Virus record (IMG/VR): IMGVR_UViG_2582580966_000010
DNA from: a virus
Taxonomy: Duplodnaviria; Heunggongvirae; Uroviricota; Caudoviricetes
Reading direction: 5' to 3' (one strand)
DNA: 14,048 nt
Shown: positions 478 to 13,530 of the stretch, one piece after another
Layout of the letters: each line of letters begins with the position of its first letter
Numbering within the stretch: position 1 is the stretch's first letter
Position numbers and translations under genes: made by a program
The notes under the pieces: model-generated
What the model saw: only the letters and a program-made list of their open reading frames with translations
Databases searched by the model: none
What the model was told of the DNA's origin: nothing

Positions 478-804
478 TCAGGGTGCAGAAGGACTAAAGA
501 TAAACGTTTTCTTCACGCCTTTACACGGCCTGTCCTTCTCAAATCGCCATTTTGCCATCGCCTTTACAACCTGCTCATCAAACAAATGGTGCGGCTCTGA
601 ACGGATAAACTCAATTCGGGTGACAGTACCATCAGCACCAATATCAAACTTCACATCAACCCGTCCCTTTATATAATTTGCCGCTGCATAGGCCGGATAT
701 TGTGGTAATGCCTTAACCAACTGTCGGGGCATATCTGTTTTATGTTGCGTACAGCCCATAACCAGAGAAGACAACAAAATAATTAACGGAAGGTTTCTTT
801 TCAT
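478..804 (-). CDS. Lipoprotein with TonB C-terminal-like domain
   Basis: Signal peptide with lipobox-like LVMGC (MKRNLPLIILLSSLVMGC). The C-terminal region PQYPAYAAANYIKGRVDVKFDIGADGTVTRIEFIRSEPHHLFDEQVVKAMAKWRFEK matches the TonB_C/TolA-C fold signature. ATG at 804 has GGGA placed 6 nt upstream; the ORF track begins at an upstream GTG (819). Confidence 0.55.
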   Translation of the reverse strand: MKRNLPLIILLSSLVMGCTQHKTDMPRQLVKALPQYPAYAAANYIKGRVDVKFDIGADGTVTRIEFIRSEPHHLFDEQVVKAMAKWRFEKDRPCKGVKKTFIFSPSAP

Positions 805-1148
805 TTTCATTCCCGGCACAGATAAGAATAAGTCTTATTCTAACAATGCCACCCTGTCGGTCATCAATCCTCTGCTTAATGGCAACGACAATTATCCGAC
901 TTAAATCACAAATCAGACACATGACATAACAGAGCTTGCGAGGTAACACATCGTCCGGTTTCTTCCACCATCGCACCGGACCAGCGACCATGAGGGGACA
1001 ACGCCGCGCTCCGTTAACACGGTAAACCCCGGTGTGTATCGTTTTTGATTATCCCCGCACACTCGCGCAGAGGAGTCTCCCGGTCGGGCTGCGGTCTCTG
1101 TTAATGCGGGGATACGGCGACAATACCGCGCATGGTTAATAAGGTCGC

Positions 1149-2302: not shown

Positions 2303-2836
2303 TTATCTGTCAATTCCCCAGCACGCCAGCGCACTCTCCTGGTCGCGACGGGATACCTGACCGTAACAGTTGTTTGAGCGAATACGGCAGTCTCTGCCAC
2401 CGTCCTTAATCCACCAGCGAATCGCTTCGCATGCTCCCCTGCGATCACCTGCATTAATTCGTCTGTAAAACGTCGACGGGAAACACTTACCGGGACCAAT
2501 GTTGTACGGACAGAATGACGCGATCCCCGCTTTCTGGGGTTCGGTCAGCGGCACTCTGATGTTTTTCTCCACCCACGCCAGCGCTTTATCACGCTCAATG
2601 GCGTTAACCTGGTCGCATTTTTCCTTCGACAACTTCATGCCCGGAACGACAGGTTTGCCATCCACCATGATGGCACCACGGCAGATGGTCCAGATACCCG
2701 CACCATCACGGTATGCCGTGGTGTGGTTGCCTTCTTTTTCATCCAGAAACTGGTCGAGAATTTCAGGCGCAGACGCACCAGCGGCAATCAGCGCCAGAAC
2801 GGCAGCCGACAGGCCGTATCTGATTTTTGCGTTCAT
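2303..2836 (-). CDS. R: SAR (signal-anchor-release) endolysin, T4-lysozyme-like muramidase (GH24)
   Basis: Gly/Ala-rich weakly hydrophobic N-terminal SAR segment (YGLSAAVLALIAAGASAPEIL), followed by the catalytic E-x8-D-x5-T spacing (EGNHTTAYRDGAGIWT) seen in phage 21 R-type lysozymes. It pairs with the upstream pinholin. Confidence 0.9.
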   Translation of the reverse strand: MNAKIRYGLSAAVLALIAAGASAPEILDQFLDEKEGNHTTAYRDGAGIWTICRGAIMVDGKPVVPGMKLSKEKCDQVNAIERDKALAWVEKNIRVPLTEPQKAGIASFCPYNIGPGKCFPSTFYRRINAGDRRGACEAIRWWIKDGGRDCRIRSNNCYGQVSRRDQESALACWGIDR

Positions 2837-2961
2837 GGATATTTATCAGGATTTATCGGTTCCGAATCCCTGGATATGTTAAGTCTTCAGCCCGCCAGTG
2901 GTGGGCACTGGCGTAAACTCAACAATGCGAGATGGCTGCCTCGCAAAGATAAGGAACAGAT

Positions 2962-3237
2962 ATGAGTGAAGAAAATAGCAAAGAGAATACAGCACTTTTT
3001 GACAGAATTTTTACTCTTGAGTTACAGGTCGGTTTTCTTCTCCCAAAGATAATCAAAGCAATGGATGCACTAAGTAAAAATAACGCTGTGTCAGATTACC
3101 TGATCGCCGAAATGGAACATCTAATTAAAGAAATACCAAAGACAGTTGCTCGTGATGATAAAAGATTCCTCAAGGCTGCTGAAGATGCTCTTTCAACAGT
3201 GAAGCGCAGCTTAGATGCGCCGCGCGATCAAGAATAG
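2962..3237 (+). CDS. Hypothetical 91-aa helical protein, antisense to the late operon (moron-like)
   Basis: ATG at 2962 with SD AAGGA at 6-nt spacing. AT-rich. The opposite strand over 2837-3169 has no ORF. It is followed by its own plus-strand intrinsic terminator. Its 3' end overlaps the 3' end of the converging 176-aa gene by 68 bp. Confidence 0.5.
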   Translation: MSEENSKENTALFDRIFTLELQVGFLLPKIIKAMDALSKNNAVSDYLIAEMEHLIKEIPKTVARDDKRFLKAAEDALSTVKRSLDAPRDQE

Positions 3238-3700
3238 TTTCTTTCATTTCATCTGCTGCAAGCACCTCATTTTTTGTTGGGGTGCTTTTTTTCAATTCAG
3301 CGATATAGCACTCCAGTTTTTCAATGCGTGATTCAATATCATCGTTTTCTGACCGCAATGCCGTCGGTGGCGTCTTCAGAGAACCAGTAATTATTCCCGG
3401 TAGTTTTCCTCTGTAGGTTATCAACACATCCTGCGCCTCTAAAATTATGGGGCGCTTTTCCGGCAACGGACCATCCCCTTCACATAACCCGGCAGCAACA
3501 TCCATGAAAAACTGCTTCGCCTGCTTTTTCGCCTCAGCTTCGTAAAACTCCAGCGTGGCATCTTCAGTACGGTCAAGACTAATCGCCACATCTGGCAACA
3601 ACAGTGACGGATACCCACCAATTTCCAGTGCCACAGTAACAGTAATCTTATTCGGGTAATTATTTATCCCTTTAACAACCAGTTCGTATTTTTTCTTCAT
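3170..3700 (-). CDS. Hypothetical 176-aa protein translationally coupled downstream of the holin
   Basis: ATG at 3700 lies 4 nt after the holin stop, with a GGAGAG SD inside the holin 3' end. Predicted C-terminal coiled coil (ENDDIESRIEKLECYIAELKK). No motif I recognise. Confidence 0.6.
   Translation of the reverse strand: MKKKYELVVKGINNYPNKITVTVALEIGGYPSLLLPDVAISLDRTEDATLEFYEAEAKKQAKQFFMDVAAGLCEGDGPLPEKRPIILEAQDVLITYRGKLPGIITGSLKTPPTALRSENDDIESRIEKLECYIAELKKSTPTKNEVLAADEMKETILDRAAHLSCASLLKEHLQQP
3261..3292 (+). terminator. Intrinsic terminator for the plus-strand 91-aa gene
   Basis: AGCACC...GGTGC stem followed by TTTTTTT on the plus strand only; the minus-strand RNA has no U-tract after the hairpin. 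The loop is long (14 nt), so confidence is moderate. Confidence 0.4.
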
Positions 3701-3704
3701 CGCT

Positions 3705-3920
3705 TTACTCTCCCCGCGCCGCCTTACGACGGTCCTCTCTGATTTTGAAATACAGGTTAGTCAGATATGTCAGCAGCCCAAACAGCAGACTTCCCAGTAC
3801 GCCTATTGCCGCCCACTGAGACGGGGAAACCCTGTCCAGCAGCTGCAGGAACCAGTAGCCCGTTCCCACCGCTGACGTGGTGTATGACACACCTGTTGTG
3901 ATTTTTTCCATCTGGTACAT
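3705..3920 (-). CDS. S: Class II holin (phage 21 S-like pinholin)
   Basis: 71-aa ORF. The sequence [51 protein letters not shown] is near-identical to S21/EssD-type holins as remembered. Possible dual-start motif M1-Y-Q-M4. Strong SD (GGGAG). Confidence 0.9.
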
Positions 3921-3995
3921 ACCCCGTCTCCCGCAATCCGGAAGCTCACAACAACAAGAGGGGCATCAGCTCACACCGACAGCCCCTGCGCATGG

Positions 3996-4265
3996 TTACA
4001 TCATCATTTCGCCGTCAGGCTGAGGCTCACTGCTACCATCAGGCTGAGACCCGACGCCATCTGAAACAGCACTGTCATCCGCAATGCCTTCCGGCTCCGG
4101 AACAGTCGGTGCGCCCAGCAGTTCATCCAGAATGGCATCCACTTCTGCATCAAGACGCGCCTCAAGGTTCTGCCGAAGTTGCTGTTTCAGTGCGCTTCTG
4201 ACTTCTTCAGAGCGCAGGACTTCCTTCACTGCTTCAGCAGTGACCAGCGATTTTATTTCTGACAT
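3996..4265 (-). CDS. Hypothetical small acidic protein (about 89 aa)
   Basis: ORF with a helical N-terminal region (MSEIKSLVTAEAVKEVLRSEEVRSALKQQLRQNLEARLDAEVDAILDELLG) and an acidic, low-complexity C-terminus. Start chosen at the internal ATG (4265) because the upstream extension is low-complexity. SD is weak. Confidence 0.4.
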   Translation of the reverse strand: MSEIKSLVTAEAVKEVLRSEEVRSALKQQLRQNLEARLDAEVDAILDELLGAPTVPEPEGIADDSAVSDGVGSQPDGSSEPQPDGEMMM

Positions 4266-4302
4266 GGTATTTTCTCGTTGAAAGGTGTTGTTAAGAAAGT
4301 TG

Positions 4303-4485
4303 CTACGGAATGAGAGGCTCTTCGGGTTTTGTTCCGGCTGACTGACTGGCACTGATTTTCTCAGCGGCCCTTTTGTCAATCTGCCTGCGCCAGAAATCTC
4401 TCACGACTCTGTACCCACCAGAAAGAAGATACAGCACACAAACTGCTGTACAGAAATACAACATAATCAGCTGTAAAAATGTCAT
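4303..4485 (-). CDS. Hypothetical 60-aa membrane protein
   Basis: ATG at 4485 with a GGAGA SD 7 nt upstream. N-terminal TM helix (FLQLIMLYFCTAVCVLYLLSGG) followed by a basic segment. Confidence 0.45.
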   Translation of the reverse strand: MTFLQLIMLYFCTAVCVLYLLSGGYRVVRDFWRRQIDKRAAEKISASQSAGTKPEEPLIP

Positions 4486-4633
4486 TATTCATCTCCATTA
4501 TTGACATGGTCAATGCCTGCCAGTAAAAAACTCCTGCATTTTTTGCTCAGCATATTTTTGCTAAGGATGTAGCGACTTCTGCCGCCGGTTCTGGCTCCTT
4601 GTTTTCCCTGCCACGGCGGTCTTTTTTTCCTGC

Positions 4634-6577
4634 TTACGGGTTATTCACTTCCACTGCGATACTGTCAATCAGTACCGGGTAAGTCGCATTTTTAGTGATA
4701 TCGGTCACGCGCAACTTGTCTGCCGTAAACGTGCCGACCGGAGACTGCGACAGCATGAATGGTGTCCCGTCCTTACCATCAATGACCGGCGTCACCTCAA
4801 TACTGTTGTTACCGGCAAAACGGAAGCCCAGCGTATGCCATTCGTTATTAAATGCGCCGAATGACCCCAGCTTCGTGTTCTGCGCCGTGTTTCCTTTGTG
4901 ATACATCACGTTAAGGTCTGTGGCATCGCTCTGTACGTAAAACGATGCCAGCAGGTTATGACCGGCATTACCTTCCAGTGTGACGCCCTGAGGAAGCGAA
5001 GAAACCGGCCAGTACAGCGCCAGTGCGTACTGATTAGCCGTAAGCGCGCCATCGAGTTTAAAACGACAACTGACAAGACCACCTTTACCCAGCAGGTCCG
5101 CACCATTACCAGCATCATGCTCAAGGTACCAGGGGGCTCTTCCTGTTTCCTTGGTCAGTTTCATTGCCTTACCCCCGCTGGCTCCGGCATCATCCACGAT
5201 TTGAGCCTTGCCACCTCCGGCAGCCCAACCCTGTGGTGTCAACCGTCCTTCAGACTCAGATGCCCGGTAAGCAAATAGCGTACTCATCGTCGTGGTGTCT
5301 GCGGGTGGCGTGGACGGTTTTGATGGTGTATCAGGTGACGGCTTCTCATCCGGTGGTGTCACGGTCTGCCCGCGCATCAATTCAGCCGTGCGCCCTGCAT
5401 GGAGCATAATAGCTGAGGCCAGACGGTCTGAAATGACGCCCCTGCGTGCCCATGAGCTGAAATGGCTGTCACGCTGTGTCGAAACAAAACTGCCCTGGGT
5501 TCGGGATGCTGCACCGTAATACCCGACAGCCACAATATCCGGGTCTTCCGCCGGAGCATTCGTTGGCGTGCTCTGTCCATTCTCATCCGTCAGGAACGGT
5601 ACAAAGAAAATATTCTGTGCTTCCCTGCCCTTGTAACCGCCATATACCGCCTCATATTTATCGGCGTTAAGATTCTTCCAGTAATACGTGGTGTCACCAC
5701 AAATCCACGGCACCGAGCCAGCACTTCCGCCAACACACTGTGCAGAATATGCAGCCATATCAGCCCTGAACTGCTGCACCATAGTGGTAAACAGGCCGCT
5801 GTGCTGCTGACTGCCGTCCGCAAGATCATTTTCCCCCTGCATCCATACCACGGCCAGAAGCCTGTTTTTCGGGTTCTTCGACAGCGCCGCTTTTGTACGG
5901 AAGAGAAAATCCTGATACAGCGGTTTACCCACTCCCCAGCGGGCTGAATTTGCCGATGCGCCAGACGTTTCGCTGAACGTGCCGTCATTACCCACGGTTA
6001 AACCAGCCCCGCCACGGCAACAGGGCACCAGAAGAATCCCGGCATTCTGCGGGATATAAGGCAGAAGTTTTTTGGCAATATGCAGCCCCTGACCGACAGT
6101 CCCGTACTGGCCCTTACTCAGGTCTGCATGAGGATGGTTAAGTGCGCTCATGTCCTGAACATCATGCAGACAGTGGTCTGCCGGAATAACGTCATTGTAT
6201 GCACAGGTATCACCACCCGGCGTCACAGTGCTGCGACGGGCCAGCTGCTTAATACGGGAGTCAGGGCGATCATAGGTCTCCGGCAGAGGAAGCCCCTCAC
6301 CATAGGCCATACCGTTCGACTGCCCGGCCAGGGGAATAACGTAGTAATACTCCGGTTCAGTGGTAGCCACTCCCGGAGAGCCACCAGCCCCTGTGTCGGG
6401 CACAACCACAGGCGTGGTCACATCACCCTCTGCGGCAATGGCCTGCATCAGTGTATAAGGCGTGATAGCCACAGGACTGCCAAACGGCTGCCAGCCTTCC
6501 TTCAGTTTTTGTGTCAGTCGCTCCGCAAGGTCTGACGGCGACGCCGCCCTGACCACGTCATAGTGTTTAAATGCCAT
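4634..6577 (-). CDS. nanS-p: Prophage-encoded sialate O-acetylesterase (NanS-p-like; DUF1737 N-domain plus SASA/SGNH esterase plus C-terminal lectin-like domain)
   Basis: 647-aa ORF. Start chosen at MAFKHYDVV (ATG 6577) with a strong SD (GGAGGA); the ORF track begins 10 codons upstream. It carries the SASA-family catalytic serine motif GQSN (YYYVIPLAGQSNGMAYGE) and the conserved block VVWMQGENDL. Its position between the tRNA/cargo site and the holin matches the large esterase ORF downstream of stx in Stx phages. Confidence 0.8.
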   Translation of the reverse strand: MAFKHYDVVRAASPSDLAERLTQKLKEGWQPFGSPVAITPYTLMQAIAAEGDVTTPVVVPDTGAGGSPGVATTEPEYYYVIPLAGQSNGMAYGEGLPLPETYDRPDSRIKQLARRSTVTPGGDTCAYNDVIPADHCLHDVQDMSALNHPHADLSKGQYGTVGQGLHIAKKLLPYIPQNAGILLVPCCRGGAGLTVGNDGTFSETSGASANSARWGVGKPLYQDFLFRTKAALSKNPKNRLLAVVWMQGENDLADGSQQHSGLFTTMVQQFRADMAAYSAQCVGGSAGSVPWICGDTTYYWKNLNADKYEAVYGGYKGREAQNIFFVPFLTDENGQSTPTNAPAEDPDIVAVGYYGAASRTQGSFVSTQRDSHFSSWARRGVISDRLASAIMLHAGRTAELMRGQTVTPPDEKPSPDTPSKPSTPPADTTTMSTLFAYRASESEGRLTPQGWAAGGGKAQIVDDAGASGGKAMKLTKETGRAPWYLEHDAGNGADLLGKGGLVSCRFKLDGALTANQYALALYWPVSSLPQGVTLEGNAGHNLLASFYVQSDATDLNVMYHKGNTAQNTKLGSFGAFNNEWHTLGFRFAGNNSIEVTPVIDGKDGTPFMLSQSPVGTFTADKLRVTDITKNATYPVLIDSIAVEVNNP

Positions 6578-6660
6578 TATTCCTCCCCTTTCCGGGATTT
6601 TCCTCAACAGTTGCGGGCCACGGTCCGGCTACACGGAGAATCAAAAGAGGAGAACCGCAG

Positions 6661-6788: not shown

Positions 6789-6796
6789 GCCCATAG

Positions 6797-6823
6797 AAAA
6801 GCCCCTCCGGAGAGGGGCTTTTT
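6797..6823. terminator. Bidirectional intrinsic terminator downstream of the TerB operon
   Basis: AAAA-GCCCCTC-cgga-GAGGGGC-TTTTT: a perfect 7-bp GC stem with an A-run and a T-run on either side. Confidence 0.55.
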
Positions 6824-7063
6824 ACAGTGGTAGTGTAGACAATTTTGCATGGTGCCGGGTGCCTCCCGGTGAGTTCAGTATCAGCACCTGAACCCGCACA
6901 GAAAGGATAAGGGTCGGTGACAAAACACCAGTTGCTGATTGCCCCTCCGCACAGGGGGATTCACCATGCCAGTTTCTTTTAACAAACTCCCCGCAAACCA
7001 GACAACAGTCAACCGCCTGAATTGTGAGGTATTTAAAAATTTCAACGGGTAACTGATACCCTG

Positions 7064-7225
7064 CTAATCGCCTGATGCTTTCTTTTTCAGCAACGGGAAA
7101 GCAACAACCACCACACCCGCCACCAGCACACCGTCAGCCAGCACTGACATTATCCGGCTGCTGAAGTCCACCATCACCACCATCACTACCAGAAACAGCA
7201 GGAGCGCAACCACAGCCAGACGCAT
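7064..7225 (-). CDS. Hypothetical 53-aa hydrophobic microprotein (predicted two TM segments), coupled to the TerB-like gene
   Basis: Translated by hand from the reverse complement: MRLAVVALLLFLVVMVVMVDFSSRIMSVLADGVLVAGVVVVAFPLLKKKASGD. The ATG at 7225 lies 8 nt after the TerB stop. It falls below the 60-aa cutoff of the ORF track. Confidence 0.4.
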   Translation of the reverse strand: MRLAVVALLLFLVVMVVMVDFSSRIMSVLADGVLVAGVVVVAFPLLKKKASGD

Positions 7226-7233
7226 TTTTACCG

Positions 7234-7665
7234 TCACAGATGATTCTCCAGACGAAGGCCCAGAACACCGGCAATCTCTTCCAGCACCTTGCGCTCTTCC
7301 GGCTCTATTTCGCCGTCTGCTTCGGCAATGGCCACCGCCACATCCAGCACGTCTTCCGCTTCACGCGTATCGTGTTTCACATCCTCGATCTCACGTAACG
7401 CCGCTCGACGACCAATTTTAAAGTTCGTATCCAGCTGACCGATAATGGTTGCGCTAATCGCATTAATTTCTGACGTAAACGCGGACAACGCAGGCTGGTT
7501 ACGCAAGACCTGCTCGATCTTCGCTTTCTCTGAAGCCTCACATTCACCATCTGCATAGGCCACCAGATAGGCAGCATTAATAACCGCCTGTGCCAGATCA
7601 CGTTTCTCAAACTTTTTAATTTCCACTGCCGCTCGGCGGGCTTTTTTACCAAAAATACCAAACAT
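7234..7665 (-). CDS. TerB-family (tellurite-resistance TerB-like) protein
   Basis: 143-aa ORF from MFGIFGKK (ATG 7665, SD AAAGGA). Two TerB-type repeats (AAYLVAYADGECEASEKAKIEQVL and DVAVAIAEADGEIEPEERKVLEEIAGVLGL) match the helical motif of TerB proteins. Confidence 0.7.
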   Translation of the reverse strand: MFGIFGKKARRAAVEIKKFEKRDLAQAVINAAYLVAYADGECEASEKAKIEQVLRNQPALSAFTSEINAISATIIGQLDTNFKIGRRAALREIEDVKHDTREAEDVLDVAVAIAEADGEIEPEERKVLEEIAGVLGLRLENHL

Positions 7666-7835
7666 CGTGACGTTCCTTTGGGTGGGTGAGCCAACGCCCG
7701 GGAGCGATCTGCCCACAGAGAAAGTCACACTGACCACTCCGTAAGCTCACCCCCGAAAGGCTCTGTGGTTGATATGCGCCGGGCGTGGCGCGGATACAAA
7801 AAAGGCCCGCAAAAGCGAGCCGGGAAAAATAAGTC

Positions 7836-7912
7836 TGGCGCGTTGTACTGGATTCGAACCAGTGACCGATTGCTTAGAAGGCAATTGCTCTGTCCGGCTG
7901 AGCTAACAACGC
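7836..7912 (-). tRNA. tRNA-Arg (anticodon UCU)
   Basis: Hand-folded cloverleaf: acceptor GCGTTGT/ACAACGC, D-arm GCTC...GAGC, anticodon stem ATTGC/GCAAT with loop CTTCTAA, T-arm CTGG-TTCGAAT-CCAG, then discriminator and an encoded CCA. Confidence 0.8.
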
Positions 7913-7928
7913 AGGATACAGATAATGA

Positions 7929-8002
7929 ACCGCCTTCGGGGATCCGAACTCCGCGCAACCAGCTTCGAAGGCTGGCGCTCTTTCCTGATGAGCTAATGGC
8001 GG
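7929..8002 (-). tRNA. tRNA-like gene, Arg (anticodon UCG), imperfect and without encoded CCA; possibly degenerate
   Basis: Cloverleaf with anticodon stem CCAGC/GCTGG and loop CTTCGAA. The acceptor stem has one A-A mismatch and the T-stem one A-C mismatch. The 3' end is followed by TCA rather than CCA. Confidence 0.5.
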
Positions 8003-8009
8003 TATGTGA

Positions 8010-8085
8010 TGGTGGCCCTTGCTGGATTTGAACCAGCGACCTGGCGATTATGAGTCGCTCGCTCTCACCACTGAGCTAAAGGGCC
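8010..8085 (-). tRNA. tRNA-Ile2 (anticodon CAU, ileX/ileZ-like; a Met assignment cannot be excluded from sequence alone)
   Basis: Sequence GGCCCTTTAGCTCAGTGGTGAGAGCGAGCGACTCATAATCGCCAGGTCGCTGGTTCAAATCCAGCAAGGGCCACCA. The anticodon stem-loop matches E. coli ileX-type tRNA as remembered. Perfect acceptor stem and an encoded CCA. Confidence 0.8.
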
Positions 8086-8113
8086 GAGCCAAAAAATAAT
8101 AATCAGATGAAAA

Positions 8114-8827
8114 TCAATAATCAAGCCCTTGCCTGGATACATATCTGTCTGGCGGGAAGCCATAATAGCGGTGAAATACAGAAATAAAGTAGGACCTGCT
8201 TGAATAACCGCATTTTTCTGCTATAGCCTGTCCATATCCATGCCGGGAACATAACATATTTACAGCAACACGCATCCGCTCTTCCAGCAACAAGCGACTG
8301 AACATGCCCCCTTCATTTTTCAGTTTTGTCTTTAACAAACTCTCACTCATATGCAACTGTAGAGCAATCGCACAAAGCGTCCAGCTTGCTGATATATCTG
8401 TCTGAATTATCGCCCTGACTTTGGCACTTATGCTGGATAAACATCCACTTAAAAACAATGACATCCGTTCATCTGTTTCAAACAGAGACAGGCAGGCCAT
8501 CATAAGAAACATATCCGTGGCCTCTCCGGAAAATCCCTGGCTGGTAATTAAAGCCGCAGCCAACGCAGGATTGTTGGGTTCCAGCAACAGGTAAAGCGGA
8601 ATGTCAGTCAGACGAGTCCTCGTCAGCTTATGCTGACTTTCCAGATATTGACTTACGACGGATTCGCTTATATCGACAATTTTAACTTTGCCATAATGCA
8701 TAAGGAAAAGCTCCCTGATGCATTTGGTGGCCAGAACAACTGAGCCTGGCTTAAGTGACAACGTATCCTTTTCAAGAAAAATATTAATTGGGGAGCAAAC
8801 CATGATAACTGAACAGACAACAGCCAT
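8114..8827 (-). CDS. AraC-family transcriptional regulator (AppY-like, no sugar-binding domain)
   Basis: 237-aa, AT-rich ORF. The C-terminal dual HTH region (WTLCAIALQLHMSESLLKTKLKNEGGMFSRLLLEERMRVAVNMLCSRHGYGQAIAEKCGYSSRSYFISVFHRYYGFPP) is typical of the AraC family, and the N-terminus MAVVCSVIMVCS resembles AppY. Confidence 0.75.
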   Translation of the reverse strand: MAVVCSVIMVCSPINIFLEKDTLSLKPGSVVLATKCIRELFLMHYGKVKIVDISESVVSQYLESQHKLTRTRLTDIPLYLLLEPNNPALAAALITSQGFSGEATDMFLMMACLSLFETDERMSLFLSGCLSSISAKVRAIIQTDISASWTLCAIALQLHMSESLLKTKLKNEGGMFSRLLLEERMRVAVNMLCSRHGYGQAIAEKCGYSSRSYFISVFHRYYGFPPDRYVSRQGLDY

Positions 8828-8960
8828 TATAATTTTACTTTCATTAGCAATTGGTTAGCTCAATTATAGCCCCAAAAGGTAAATTATCATCAACACATAA
8901 GCAAAGGACTGACAGGTGTCGCCCCCCACCAGCCGCCCATTCACCACAAATAAAAAGCCT

Positions 8961-9158
8961 TCAGGACTGAAGGCGTCTGTAACAACCGCACTGATAGTCT
9001 GCCAGACCCACCATAACAAGCTGGGTCAGTATTAACTGGCAGCGTTCGCGTGAAAGGTAAGTATTCTGCGCAATCTCCCCGACGGTCGCCGGTTCGGTGA
9101 CGCTTAATTCATTAAACACCACTCTGGCGGTTTCTGTCATATCCTGCTGTTTTAGCAT
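8961..9158 (-). CDS. Hypothetical 65-aa protein, possible winged-helix DNA-binding fold
   Basis: Start chosen at MLKQQDM (ATG 9158), which has an SD-like GGAAAAGGGA upstream. The segment ATVGEIAQNTYLSRERCQLILTQLVMVGLADY resembles a recognition helix plus wing. The upstream ORF-track extension is Cys-rich and unlikely. Confidence 0.35.
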   Translation of the reverse strand: MLKQQDMTETARVVFNELSVTEPATVGEIAQNTYLSRERCQLILTQLVMVGLADYQCGCYRRLQS

Positions 9159-9280
9159 GTCTTTTTCCCTTTTCCGGTTAACGTGACACACCAATAACTC
9201 TTGTCGAAAAAGCCAGCAAGCTGAAAGACAGGTATTCACCGCCACCAGCGCGTTTACTGTACTGACGCGATTTCAGTCAT

Positions 9281-9303
9281 AAAAAACCCGCCAGGCGGCG
9301 GGG
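9281..9303 (-). terminator. tR'-like intrinsic terminator downstream of Q
   Basis: Minus-strand RNA: CCCGCC-gccu-GGCGGG followed by UUUUUU. The plus-strand RNA has no U-tract. Lies about 80 nt downstream of the Q stop. Confidence 0.55.
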
Positions 9304-9344: not shown

Positions 9345-9380
9345 TAGAGCGAATTTACCACAGATTCGGGAAAAATCAAC
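9345..9380 (-). promoter_or_regulatory. Candidate late promoter pR' (sigma70, extended -10) immediately downstream of Q
   Basis: On the minus strand: -35 TTGATT (9379-9374), 16-nt spacer, TGg-TAAATT extended -10 (9357-9352). The predicted short transcript would end at the terminator at 9281-9303, matching the lambdoid pR'-qut-tR' arrangement. Confidence 0.4.
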
Positions 9381-9384
9381 AACA

Positions 9385-10206
9385 CTATCGCGTTACCCTC
9401 TTTAACTGCCGCTCCGCCCATGCCTCTTCAATGTCAAACCGAACCACCAACGTATCGTAAAAGCGTTTCACTGATTTTTTCCACGTATCAAGCGTGATAG
9501 CACTCGTCACTTTGCATATGGCATTAAATGCCTCCGTTGATGGTAGTCTTTCACAGCCACGACCACCACAACGCTGGCAGTCTCTGATAACAGGCATACC
9601 ACGTTTTACCGACTCTTCACGATGAATGGCGACACCACGCCCACGGCAATCCTTACAGGCGGTGGAAACCTCACCCTTTCCGCCACACTCCGGACAGGCA
9701 ACTTTTACCACCTCCCTGACTTTTTTCCATTCTTCCCAGTAAGACGGATACACACCTTTCGTACACTTTGCCCATACCGGCGGCTTACCATCCGGATACT
9801 GGACCTTGTTTGTAAAAACTACGCTTTCAATAAATTTTTCCCCATAGCAACAAGGGCACTGCTTTTTACTCGCTGCGCTGCGGGCATAATCCTCAAAAGC
9901 GTACGAAGCCATAATGCGCATCACTACCGGTTTTATTTCTGCCGGGAGTTTTCTTAACGCCGCCACGCGATCACACCGACTGAGTGCATATTCTGTCAGC
10001 AATTCTGTTGCCCGCTCTCTGTCATTCATACTAATGCCCATTTTCCCAAGGAACGCAGAAAACCCCATCCCAGCCCGATTCTGTGTCATGCCCTGCGCGG
10101 CCATCACATCAGTGATACTCAGCGCATCTTTCGACGTTGAGGCCGATGCATCAGTCAGGCCGGGGGATTTTGGGGAGTAGTATTTCGGTAAATCTTCCAG
10201 TTTCAT
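9385..10206 (-). CDS. Q: Late-gene antiterminator Q (QuuQ-like)
   Basis: 273-aa ORF. The N-terminus MKLEDLPKYYSPKSPGLTD...SITDVMAAQGM matches Qin QuuQ-type Q as remembered. Several CxxC pairs suggest a zinc-binding domain. It lies between rusA and pR'/tR'. Confidence 0.8.
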   Translation of the reverse strand: MKLEDLPKYYSPKSPGLTDASASTSKDALSITDVMAAQGMTQNRAGMGFSAFLGKMGISMNDRERATELLTEYALSRCDRVAALRKLPAEIKPVVMRIMASYAFEDYARSAASKKQCPCCYGEKFIESVVFTNKVQYPDGKPPVWAKCTKGVYPSYWEEWKKVREVVKVACPECGGKGEVSTACKDCRGRGVAIHREESVKRGMPVIRDCQRCGGRGCERLPSTEAFNAICKVTSAITLDTWKKSVKRFYDTLVVRFDIEEAWAERQLKRVTR

Positions 10207-10577
10207 TTTTTGACCTGCCCTGCAAGCATTATGGGGTAAATCTTCACCCCCAGACGTCCACCAGATACTGGCTGAGCACGAACGATATTGATTTCATCAA
10301 ACTGCTCATCGTCCATTAGCAACCCCGCATGCGTCAGCGCATCCAGCGGCGCTTTCAGAATATTGTCCAGGTCACGGCGGCGCTTATCCGGTGGCGCGGC
10401 AATAATCTTTATCGCCAGCCTTCCGGACAGGCTTAATTTCAGCCGCTGCTGGCGAACAATAAGCGCCACAGCCCGGCGATAACGCTCACCGGCTTTTGAT
10501 ACAAAATATGTGCTGCCACGACGTCGCCAGTAGGTGTTCACCGTCGGCGGGTAAGGCAAAACAAACTCTATACGCAT
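10203..10577 (-). CDS. rusA: Holliday-junction resolvase RusA
   Basis: 124-aa ORF with the RusA motif block PDKRRRDLDNILKAPLDALTHAGLLMDDEQ. Overlaps the Q start by 4 nt. Confidence 0.85.
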   Translation of the reverse strand: MRIEFVLPYPPTVNTYWRRRGSTYFVSKAGERYRRAVALIVRQQRLKLSLSGRLAIKIIAAPPDKRRRDLDNILKAPLDALTHAGLLMDDEQFDEINIVRAQPVSGGRLGVKIYPIMLAGQVKK

Positions 10578-10589
10578 CAGTAACCTCTT

Positions 10590-11639
10590 TTACCCGAGCA
10601 CGCCGGTTGCAAAGGCGTGATCAAGAAAACGAAAAATTAAATCAACCTGAGAGCCATGCTTTTCTTCGAACGCCAGCGGATCCGCATGAAGCTCGTTGTG
10701 ATGCTCCCGACACAGCGGTAGCGTGAAAATATCGTGAGATTTTGTCCCCATTCCGCCCTGACCATGACCAATCAGGTGATGGGGATCGTCGGCTGGCTTA
10801 CCACAACACGCACACGGCTGTGTCTTCACCCAGCGCGTGTATTTCTCGTTAACCCAGCGGCGACGTTTAGGTCGTTTCATGAAGGATTCCGGAGACTCCG
10901 GATCAACGGCAATGCTGACCACCGTCTTTTCCTGTGGTGGATTTTGTTGCTGGTGGACGTGAAGTGGCAGCGCAATATTTTTTGTGCGCTGCTTCAGTAT
11001 GCTGATGGCTGTCTGTTCTCCCGGTACGATGTCACTCTCACGGTATACGGAGCGGATTTTTTCCGCTGGTAATCCCAGCGAACGACGCGCTACTGCCTCA
11101 GGTAGTGCATCCACCACCTGATTGCAGGCCGCCCACCAGGATAATTCAGCCAGCGATAATTCACGCTCCTGTGTGCCATTCATTGCGTGACGAATGACGT
11201 CAATCATCCATGCTGACAGGTTTTGGTGAGCAAGTTGCTCAAGTGATTCGGAGGTCTGGTCACGCAACTGGTTGTCGCAGTGCCAGCACAACACCATTGC
11301 GCCGGTACCATAACGGTGAATGACGGTTTCACTGTGGTGATAATCGCCGTGTGGCCACTGGCAGGATTTAACATGGCGCAGTAACCAGTCAGACAATGCG
11401 CCAGCGCCACCAGCAGCACGAATCACTCGTTCGTCGCTGAAAAATGGCAGTAATGATTTATCCTCCGCCAGCGGCTGGCGAACGGCAGGAACGACCCCGG
11501 ACGACAGATTACGCATGCTTTTCGGTTCCGGCTCCACCAGTACCCGGGTATTGTGGAATACCGGCATGGATTCACGGCCCGGCTTAACGATCACCAGCCC
11601 GAGTTCCGGTACCAGAACAGGTCGAAGTAATACCCGCAC
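10590..11639 (-). CDS. ydfU: DUF968-family protein with C-terminal HNH-like zinc motif (YdfU-like; NinG-region protein)
   Basis: 349-aa ORF with an apparent GTG start; an internal ATG is also possible. Near-identical in pattern to Qin YdfU as remembered. C-terminal CACCGKPADDPHHLIGHGQGGMGTKSHDIFTLPLCREHHNELH. Confidence 0.75.
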   Translation of the reverse strand: MRVLLRPVLVPELGLVIVKPGRESMPVFHNTRVLVEPEPKSMRNLSSGVVPAVRQPLAEDKSLLPFFSDERVIRAAGGAGALSDWLLRHVKSCQWPHGDYHHSETVIHRYGTGAMVLCWHCDNQLRDQTSESLEQLAHQNLSAWMIDVIRHAMNGTQERELSLAELSWWAACNQVVDALPEAVARRSLGLPAEKIRSVYRESDIVPGEQTAISILKQRTKNIALPLHVHQQQNPPQEKTVVSIAVDPESPESFMKRPKRRRWVNEKYTRWVKTQPCACCGKPADDPHHLIGHGQGGMGTKSHDIFTLPLCREHHNELHADPLAFEEKHGSQVDLIFRFLDHAFATGVLG

Positions 11640-12080: not shown

Positions 12081-12236
12081 TTACTCCTCAGGTTCGTAAG
12101 CTGTGAAGACAGCGACCTCCGTCTGGCCGGTTCGGATTCGTACCTCGCAGAGGTCTTTCCTCGTTACCAGTGCCGTCACAATGACGGTTAAACAGATGAC
12201 GATCAGGGCGATTAGCATCGCCTTTTGCTGCTTCAT
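12081..12236 (-). CDS. hok: Hok-family type I toxin (identical in sequence to HokD/RelF as remembered)
   Basis: Hand translation gives MKQQKAMLIALIVICLTVIVTALVTRKDLCEVRIRTGQTEVAVFTAYEPEE (51 aa): one TM helix plus a periplasmic tail with conserved Cys. Confidence 0.9.
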   Translation of the reverse strand: MKQQKAMLIALIVICLTVIVTALVTRKDLCEVRIRTGQTEVAVFTAYEPEE

Positions 12237-12293
12237 AGCCTGCTTCTCCTTGCCTTTCGGCACGTAAGAGGCTAACCTACGTGTGTAGAGCAT
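12081..12293 (-). CDS. mok: mok-like overlapping reading frame (same frame as hok, upstream start)
   Basis: In-frame upstream extension MLYTRRLASYVPKGKEKQA running into hok, as in hok/mok/sok loci where mok translation is needed for hok translation. Confidence 0.55.
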   Translation of the reverse strand: MLYTRRLASYVPKGKEKQAMKQQKAMLIALIVICLTVIVTALVTRKDLCEVRIRTGQTEVAVFTAYEPEE

Positions 12294-12447
12294 AGATATG
12301 GCCTCAGATTAATGTTAAGCGTCTTGCCGGACGCGTAATGTTAACTGGGGCTTTTCTCTATCTGCCTTTTGGTGTTCATGCCTGAGACAGATAGCCTCAA
12401 GCACCCGCTGCAATTCTACTTAACTCTCCTTTTCCCGCAAACCGTTT

Positions 12448-13046: not shown

Positions 13047-13310
13047 TTAACCCGCAGTGCTTTCAACTGATGAGGGGAACAAAATCTTTTCATCAAACCC
13101 TGCATTCATATCATGAACAGCAACACACCAATCCATCGACGAACGATTATCAAGAGCCTCCATGATTTCATCCATGCGACGTAGGTCATACAGGTAAATG
13201 CTTTTATCGCCAATGGTGTAAAAGCCAATTTTTTTCGGTGATGGACAGCGATCAAGAACTTCCTGTAATTCGTTCAACCATGCCCGTTCTTTTTTTGTCA
13301 AAGTTGCCAT
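13047..13310 (-). CDS. Hypothetical 87-aa protein
   Basis: Start chosen at MATLTKKERAWLNELQ (ATG 13310) with SD AAGGA; the upstream ORF-track extension is low-complexity. The stop lies 10 nt before the next gene. Confidence 0.5.
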   Translation of the reverse strand: MATLTKKERAWLNELQEVLDRCPSPKKIGFYTIGDKSIYLYDLRRMDEIMEALDNRSSMDWCVAVHDMNAGFDEKILFPSSVESTAG

Positions 13311-13311
13311 A

Positions 13312-13530
13312 TCAGTTTTCCTTATACGGATTAATTTTATTGTGCAGTGTGTTGAACGACGCCCATACAACGTCGGTATACAATTCAGTAACTGGCTCAA
13401 TTATTTTCCCGATTGCCCAGACAAAAATTAGAGGGGATATCGGTATCATCAATACGATAAACAGAATGAGAAACAAAAATTCTGTCGCTCTACTTTTTTG
13501 CGGATATTCTTTTCTGAATAATGTAGTCAT
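13312..13530 (-). CDS. Hypothetical 72-aa membrane protein
   Basis: AT-rich. Hydrophobic core FLFLILFIVLMIPISPLIFVWAIG. Its stop is 1 nt from the next start. Confidence 0.5.
   Translation of the reverse strand: MTTLFRKEYPQKSRATEFLFLILFIVLMIPISPLIFVWAIGKIIEPVTELYTDVVWASFNTLHNKINPYKEN

Follow-up and report, generated by a model that had tools for sequence, protein, structure and literature searches.

The gene Z2104 of Escherichia coli O157:H7 EDL933 encodes the AraC/XylS-type protein named PsrB (prophage-encoded secretion regulator B), which binds directly to the promoters of hdeA (-132 to -45) and gadE, increases acid resistance at pH 2.5-3.5 and, together with its 90%-identical paralogue PsrA, acts indirectly as a repressor of type III secretion from the enterocyte effacement locus (LEE) via GadE and YhiF (PMC10877973, PMC8565820, PMC4456613). 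For PatE, another regulator of O157, action on the same region of the hdeA promoter as PsrB has been reported (PMC10877973). Here, an AraC-family gene and its surroundings are described in a 14,048-nt stretch of viral DNA (Caudoviricetes; IMG/VR record IMGVR_UViG_2582580966_000010), which in its full length is called the window; the region under study extends from the end of the stop codon of this gene (8114) to the ATG of a small open reading frame (ORF) upstream of it (9158). In the best overall reading, to which a probability of roughly 0.85 is given, the gene is an allele of psrB, encoding an AraC/XylS activator that is carried on a cassette in the first variable slot of a lambdoid prophage's late operon and acts on the acid resistance of the host.

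The ORF is not a chance reading frame: HTH_AraC (E 7.8e-12) and HTH_18 (E 5.8e-10) of Pfam match it above their gathering scores. Its product is identical at 233 of 237 positions (98.3%) to WP_000301797.1 of O157:H7 strain WS4202, an EDL933 derivative; the two genes share 99.0% nucleotide identity, and the exact window protein is present on 252 public contigs. Z2104 was recognised in WS4202 by mapping onto that genome the published O-island 57 primer pairs for Z2100, Z2101, Z2102, Z2104, Z2108 and Z2109 (PMC4763077). All six pairs are colinear on the WS4202 locus, with the Z2104 pair inside the AraC gene, a Z2100-to-Z2104 spacing that equals the published 2597 bp exactly and a Z2104-to-Z2108 spacing that is 98 bp shorter. 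In the window, the Z2104 pair yields the expected 158-bp amplicon at 8410-8567. The gene also occupies the same slot as in WS4202, in the order antiterminator gene Q, small ORF, psr, tRNAs, TerB, DUF3927, SASA esterase and holin. Three features of the Psr family are found here, namely near-identity to known members (98.3% to the Z2104 product and 89.9% to a second O157/O55 allele), a C-terminal AraC/XylS double helix-turn-helix (Pfam matches and structure 3mkl) and residence in a prophage, as RusA, Q, tRNAs, holin, lysozyme and Rz mark the window as a lambdoid late region.

A preliminary description of this DNA, prepared from the letters of the sequence, had placed an AraC regulator as late-operon cargo between tR′ and the tRNAs of a prophage and had proposed that such a regulator could rewire host genes, but had not recognised that the gene already has a name. 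The placement is borne out, and the proposal agrees with the published action of the 98%-identical PsrB on gadE, on hdeA and, indirectly, on type III secretion (PMC10877973, PMC8565820, PMC4456613). PsrB is also the closest characterised homologue that the description had suggested seeking, and the objection it had foreseen, that the gene might have no regulatory effect, fails in view of the effect published for this protein. Activation of hdeA and gadE has been reported for the O157 protein, and from the near-identity we infer that the window allele acts likewise.

Comparison with the proteins of strains Sakai and K-12 places the gene among several regulators of acid resistance. In BLASTP searches, the window protein aligns over its full length with PatE (37% identity, E 1e-53), GadW (35%, E 5e-40), YdeO (31%, E 3e-33) and AppY (28.6%, E 1e-33), and over the DNA-binding domain only with GadX (42%, E 5e-24). 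The alignments with GadW, YdeO, AppY and PatE begin at residue 1, and residues 1-229 align to positions 1-230 of the NCBIfam model for YdeO. YdeO (E 3.9e-31) and GadX are the best NCBIfam matches; the protein is an orthologue of neither by these models (108.6 bits against an equivalog cut-off of 348 for YdeO, NF007407, and 87.4 against 500 for GadX, NF007432), and it misses every other equivalog cut-off of NCBIfam. By these alignments, the psrB product is a member of the GadX/GadW/YdeO/AppY/PatE subfamily and is homologous to it throughout, including the N-terminal domain.

Conceivably, the gene could instead be an orthologue or equivalent of AppY, in which case it would mainly activate anaerobic and phosphate-starvation operons (hya, appCBA) and stabilise RpoS, like the AppY of prophage DLP12. 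AppY, too, is prophage-borne, aligns over its full length (E 1e-33) and binds gadE directly (PMC10057817). However, its identity of 28.6% to the window protein lies below that of PatE, GadW and YdeO and far below that of PsrB (98%), appY is found next to ompT, at DLP12's far end, and does not occupy the Q-tRNA slot, and the reviews of the Psr proteins describe no regulation of hya or app by them (PMC10877973, PMC8565820, PMC4456613). Orthology to AppY is accordingly regarded as very improbable. The earlier term "AppY-like" is true at the subfamily level only, because PatE, GadW and YdeO score higher identities, and as a functional analogy it is apt because AppY also acts directly on gadE; it misleads where it singles out AppY, given the 29% identity (against 98% for PsrB) and the different position in the prophage.

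The psrB product consists of an N-terminal domain (residues 1 to ~130) followed by the double helix-turn-helix DNA-binding domain (~134-233). It had been described as lacking a ligand-binding domain, a statement that is imprecise because a shared domain of ~130 residues is present, which aligns with the N-terminal domains of PatE, GadW, YdeO and AppY. In the DNA-binding domain, both the sequence (E 6e-19) and the fold of an AlphaFold2 (AF2) model (template-modeling score, TM, 0.90; root-mean-square deviation, rmsd, 1.4 Å) correspond to structure 3mkl of GadX. This model was built from a 13-sequence alignment and is confident for the DNA-binding domain only; its N-terminal half, with a predicted local distance difference test score (pLDDT) of 42-76, shows five short strands and then helices. 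The best whole-chain Foldseek matches are the virulence regulators Rns, CsvR and ToxT (E 1e-9 to 1e-6), with a TM of only ~0.4 and an rmsd of ~15 Å, and the sequence match to them covers residues 110-230; at a TM of ~0.4, the whole-chain matches to Rns and ToxT settle neither the N-terminal fold nor the presence of a ligand pocket.

Several observations weigh against the assignment to psrB and the function that comes with it. The window allele differs from Z2104 by A103V, C152G, H196Y and I204V, and residue 152 lies in the first helix-turn-helix region; moreover, the functional statements on PsrB that are used here come from three reviews of O157 proteins. No Shine-Dalgarno sequence precedes the first ATG of psrB, and a GGAG motif is found 9 nt before Met43 (8690-8716 (-), codons 38-46), the start of a 195-aa form that is used in some older annotations. 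In addition, a scan for promoters gave 3 sites where shuffled sequence gave 2.4 +/- 1.8, which is no enrichment, so that the promoter call for psrB, taken alone, is statistically indistinguishable from chance, and because the overall count does not rise above chance this promoter is treated as a prediction. Met43 was rejected as the start in spite of its better Shine-Dalgarno sequence; the 237-aa form is preferred because the homology to PatE, GadW, YdeO and AppY includes residues 1-42. It may be that psrB has dual translation starts.

Among 5426 complete E. coli genomes, psr occurs in 726, at 1324 places and always at full length, with two copies in O157:H7 genomes; a protein search found no PsrB beyond Escherichia and Shigella. 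Eight loci were inspected: S1-CAM-01-A, O157 WS4202, O157 86-24, O55:H7 DEC5E, O16:H6 CU37RT-2, enterotoxigenic E. coli (ETEC) 1748 (ETEC1748), the genet isolate A34 and phage phiSTEC1575-Stx2k. In every one of them psr is an intact 714-nt ORF that adjoins an ileZ-type tRNA and lies in a prophage or phage, and together these loci include at least four types of Q and varied downstream genes (TerB, stx2k, or the holins directly). Among seven psr alleles, the pairwise ratio of nonsynonymous to synonymous substitution (dN/dS) is 0.19-0.45, with dS up to 0.38, and because of these ratios psr appears to be under moderate purifying selection. The objection that the gene might be a pseudogene in related prophages therefore fails, as the ORF is intact at 8 of 8 loci and its sequences carry the mark of purifying selection. 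Some copies do decay, since a minority of truncated or domain-less variants (P0029, P0036, P0047) occurs in the protein database.

These data bear on the possibility that psrB is silent and functionally irrelevant cargo, an AT-rich cassette silenced by H-NS and kept because it hitch-hikes with the prophage. The low GC content, the lack of a Shine-Dalgarno sequence at the annotated start and the truncated or domain-less variants could all be read in this way, as could the report that single deletion of psrB in O157 has little effect on secretion (PMC10877973). However, silent cargo would be hard to reconcile with a dN/dS of 0.19-0.45 across alleles whose dS is 0.2-0.38, with an ORF that is intact at all of the inspected loci, even beside a frameshifted or missing small ORF, with conserved promoter hexamers and with the acid-resistance phenotype published for PsrB (PMC10877973). 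A silent gene is thus considered unlikely. Alleles of psr occur in O104:H4, which is not known to carry LEE, and in ETEC, O16:H6 and commensal-type isolates. This distribution suggests that what all carriers have in common is the activation of acid resistance and not the control of secretion.

The limits of the cassette follow from comparison with phages that lack psr, because homology to them ends at its flanks. Phage 1720a-02 shares window positions 7787-8089 (the tRNAs) and 8925-9302 (the small ORF and tR′), phiP27 shares 7787-8089 and 8891-9302, and many Stx2a phages have only the small-ORF segment and the tRNAs in common with the window. In the place of psr, 1720a-02 and phiP27 carry a 1059-bp DNA methyltransferase gene (1829-2887 in one locus and 2627-3685 in the other). 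Between the small winged-helix ORF and the ileZ tRNA lies an exchange point, filled by psr in some prophages and by a methyltransferase in phiP27, 1720a-02 and, it appears, further related Stx2 phages. The cassette shows two hallmarks of a moron, as it is present or absent between conserved flanks and differs in base composition (42% against 50% GC). The preliminary description had called the gene AT-rich, which is borne out in direction by the GC contents (43.7% for the psrB coding sequence and 42.0% for the cassette, compared with 49.6% in the window and 50% in Q), although the difference is modest.

The predicted psrB promoter lies inside the cassette, at its upstream edge, and ends 36 nt upstream of the ATG. 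Seven alleles, with coding sequences that diverge by up to 15%, all have its two hexamers and an overlapping TTGATG unchanged; among them is that of A34, in which the upstream context is different. The search for a promoter of its own, which the preliminary description had advised, thus yields a conserved sigma-70-like site with 10 of 12 consensus matches, as a prediction only.

Upstream of the cassette is the small ORF, the first past tR′, which encodes 65 aa and is labelled "TrmB family transcriptional regulator" or "hypothetical protein" in RefSeq. It belongs to PHROG 331 (E 7e-37), a family of unknown function, and its conserved form comprises 63-65 aa and starts with MLKQQDMTE across genera. 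A longer, 94-aa version with a GTG start was set aside, as this is probably not the real start and the 65-aa start is the one conserved across genera. The window ORF has a weak match to Pfam TrmB (E 0.0044; 17.3 bits, below the cut-off of 25.6); among 20 homologues, TrmB is matched by 19, DprA_WH by 18 (best E 3.4e-8) and MarR_2 by 13. A profile search against the PDB returned chance-level matches only, and a single-sequence AF2 model shows three helices at low confidence (pLDDT 60), which makes it unusable for a fold search. On the strength of the family matches, "winged-helix-like" seems a fair description of the predicted protein.

Homologues of the small ORF that are 78-92% identical occur in Escherichia, Salmonella, Klebsiella, Citrobacter, Buttiauxella and Scandinavium, a range far wider than that of PsrB (Escherichia and Shigella only). 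The ORF is present in phages without psr; conversely, it is frameshifted beside an intact psr in O55:H7, O157 86-24 and ETEC1748, and absent in A34. Because each is found without the other in working order, the small ORF is a separate and older gene of the phage backbone and not a partner of PsrB. The earlier view of this ORF as cargo alongside the AraC gene is therefore given up, as it belongs to the conserved backbone.

The position of psr at the very start of the late operon, beside a second putative DNA-binding protein, might suggest that PsrB, alone or with the small winged-helix protein, is directed at the phage itself and controls the late genes, the tRNAs or the TerB/TciB-like genes rather than host genes. 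The cassette, however, travels with at least four types of Q and with varied downstream sets (TerB, stx2k, or holins directly), its place is taken by a methyltransferase in related phages, the small ORF is dispensable beside it, and the published targets of PsrB are host genes. A phage-directed regulator is therefore barely credible.

On this basis, a scheme for the expression of psrB can be proposed. In the lysogen, when Q is absent, transcripts from pR′ would end at tR′, and readthrough would end at the terminator of the small ORF; because pR′ transcripts would stop at these two sites, psrB would most likely be transcribed from its own predicted promoter (8890-8863), perhaps together with the tRNAs. 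Its product would then bind the promoters of hdeA and gadE at AT-rich sites, activating the glutamate-dependent acid-resistance regulon through GadE. Upon induction, Q-modified RNA polymerase starting at pR′ would, judging from the position of the cassette, read through the terminators and carry psrB, the tRNAs and the lysis genes on one transcript. The overexpression on induction that the preliminary description had foreseen would thus be a reasonable expectation, given the position downstream of pR′. There is no strong terminator directly 3′ of psrB; the first one downstream is at 7821-7804, past the tRNAs. Terminator-like hairpins are enriched in the 1.9-kb stretch as a whole, with 8 found against 2.1 +/- 1.7 expected.

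Phage phiSTEC1575-Stx2k carries a 91%-identical psr allele between its antiterminator gene and the tRNAs and stx2k (locus 2505-4828), and an IraM-like anti-adapter gene resides just downstream of its toxin genes. In other Stx2 phages, the toxin is expressed from the late promoter. If stx2k is likewise driven by the late promoter, its transcript must cross psr, because psr lies between the antiterminator gene and stx2k. It could be, more broadly, that the psr cassette is a general phage-borne switch of the GadE regulon in many LEE-less E. coli lineages (~13% of complete genomes, including ETEC, O104:H4 and commensals), perhaps wired to induction such that readthrough by Q delivers a pulse of PsrB with the tRNAs and, in Stx2k phages, with the toxin, and that the 65-aa ORF, highly conserved as the first of the late operon in Enterobacteriaceae, is separately a regulator of the late stage. 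Taken jointly, these proposals are speculative and rather doubtful.

The features of the window are collected in Table 1. The AraC gene, the small ORF, pR′/tR′ and the tRNAs are all present where the preliminary description had put them, the two genes lying between Q with pR′/tR′ (~9379-9281) on one side and the tRNAs on the other.

Table 1. Features of the late region in the window, in the order of transcription
Feature	Position	Strand	Remarks
DUF968 gene	10590-11639	-	
RusA	10203-10577	-	
Q antiterminator, 273 aa	9385-10206	-	PF03589, E 9.3e-51
pR′-like late promoter	9352-9379	-	TTGATT 9379-9374, 16-nt spacer, TGgTAAATT with hexamer 9357-9352; read from the sequence
tR′-like intrinsic terminator	9281-9302	-	CCCGCC-GCCT-GGCGGG then TTTTTT; 6 G-C pairs and T run
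Small winged-helix-like ORF, 65 aa	8961-9158	-	Separated from Q by a short non-coding stretch
Intrinsic-terminator-like hairpin over the small-ORF stop codon	8957-8974	-	GCCTTCAG-TCCT-GAAGGC then TTTTTATTT
Exchangeable AT-rich cargo cassette (moron) with promoter and psrB, ~835 bp	8090-8924	-	Limits from homology breaks in related phages
Predicted sigma-70 promoter of psrB	8863-8890	-	ATGATA, 16-nt spacer, TATAAT; 10/12 consensus matches
AraC-family gene, 237 aa (probable psrB allele)	8114-8827	-	
Three tRNA genes, ileZ-argN-argO type (CAU, Arg-UCG, Arg-UCU)	7836-8085	-	ARAGORN
Terminator-like hairpin past the tRNA cluster	7804-7821	-	7 pairs, 6 G-C, then TTTTTT
TerB-family gene (PHROG "tellurite resistance") and DUF3927 TciB-like gene	7064-7737	-	
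DUF1737-SASA-DUF6645 esterase	4634-6607	-	Followed by holin, lysozyme and Rz

Late regulation and lysis of a lambdoid prophage are encoded in the window, on the minus strand. The pR′-like promoter begins 6 nt past the Q stop codon and, with 8 of 12 consensus matches, falls below the threshold of the scanner. A -10-like element, AACGAT, lies downstream of it at 9345-9340; we take this element and the TAAATT hexamer to resemble lambda pR′ and its pause signal. The tR′-like hairpin, CCCGCCGCCTGGCGGG, spans 9302-9287 and is followed by six T residues. The tRNA genes reside at 8010-8085, 7927-8003 and 7836-7912 (minus strand). That with the CAU anticodon (8010-8085) is called tRNA-Met by ARAGORN, and an identical gene is annotated as tRNA-Ile in RefSeq; being of the ileZ type, it is presumably lysidine-modified.

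Further elements surround this core. Immediately after the tRNAs and their terminator, the TerB and DUF3927/TciB-like pair sits in the position held by stx in Shiga toxin (Stx) phages. Between the DUF3927/TciB-like ORF and the SASA esterase is an STnc100 small RNA (sRNA) element (6789-6998 (-); Rfam, 145.6 bits over the full-length model). The 154-nt sRNA EvrS of enterohaemorrhagic E. coli (EHEC) is located between z1789 and the esterase gene z1793 in CP-933N (PMC11774850). The window element may be the same as EvrS. The window also contains a hok/sok-type toxin-antitoxin module (12081-12406 (-)), in which an Rfam sok RNA (117 bits, 12231-12406) overlaps a 70-aa mok/hok-like ORF (12081-12293). 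Between Rz and a DUF3950 gene, an ORF of 113 aa, lipoprotein-like and with a C-terminal TonB domain (478-819 (-); E 1.4e-14), stands where CP-933O of O157 has a PerC/Pch regulator gene. The Psr family is associated with type III effector loci and with Pch (PerC-like) regulators; no PerC-family ORF is present in the window, which stops short of the prophage's tail and effector end. Strain S1-CAM-01-A matches the central 1.9 kb at 99.8% identity, and no complete E. coli genome in the collection matches the mosaic of the window as a whole (best coverage 75% at 93% identity).

The AraC gene of the window is, then, a gene that has already been characterised, and the notion of a prophage regulator, right in outline and wrong in some details, is not new. 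The underlying biology, in which a phage AraC protein takes over the GadE acid-resistance circuit and hence affects type III secretion, was described for O157:H7 in 2011-2015. In this case, a real prophage-borne regulator of host physiology was recovered from raw sequence. The context added here, which leaves the current understanding unchanged, is that the cassette is mapped at its edges, with a methyltransferase as alternative cargo in the slot, that psr is intact and under apparent purifying selection across Q types and in non-EHEC isolates, and that the small ORF is a separable part of the backbone.

The closest known counterpart of the locus is that of PsrB (Z2104, CP-933O / O-island 57 of EDL933), where the gene occupies the same slot, with the small ORF upstream and tRNAs, TerB, DUF3927 and the SASA esterase downstream. 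The two loci differ in the type of Q (PF03589 in the window, DUF1133 in CP-933O), in the number of tRNAs (three in the window, two in WS4202) and at the far end, where the PerC/Pch gene of CP-933O is replaced by the TonB_C lipoprotein gene. The second O157:H7/O55:H7 allele (WP_000261909/10) is of the same family and length and lies in the same slot beside an ileZ tRNA. It is ~90% identical to both the window protein and Z2104, and because this equals the published identity of PsrA and PsrB we infer that it is PsrA. The reviews place psrA (z1789) in O-island 50 / CP-933N. However, CP-933N of re-sequenced EDL933 and Sp6 of Sakai contain no psr gene, small ORF or tRNAs, and retain only the Q-pR′ stretch up to window position 9164 (13063-13391 of the Sakai Sp6 locus and 16663-16991 of the EDL933 CP-933N locus). 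The second O157 copy resides in another prophage, beside an "ECs1072 family" gene, and the mismatch may reflect an error of the original assembly or of naming.

More distant comparisons follow the architecture of the protein. Rns, CsvR and ToxT are virulence regulators of the AraC family with a fatty-acid-binding N-terminal domain, and the N-terminal region of PsrB is ~30 residues shorter than theirs. PatE (Z0321 / ECs_0287, CP-933H / Sp1) is, like PsrB, a prophage-borne AraC-like activator of gadE and hdeA and is colinear with it over the full length; unlike the window gene, to which it has only 37% identity, it is found at the end of a degraded prophage rather than in the Q-tRNA slot. Finally, the chromosomal regulators GadW, GadX and YdeO, together with AppY of DLP12, are encoded in genomic contexts that differ from that of psrB in the window, but they share with its product the same subfamily architecture and converge on the same node, gadE and the acid fitness island.

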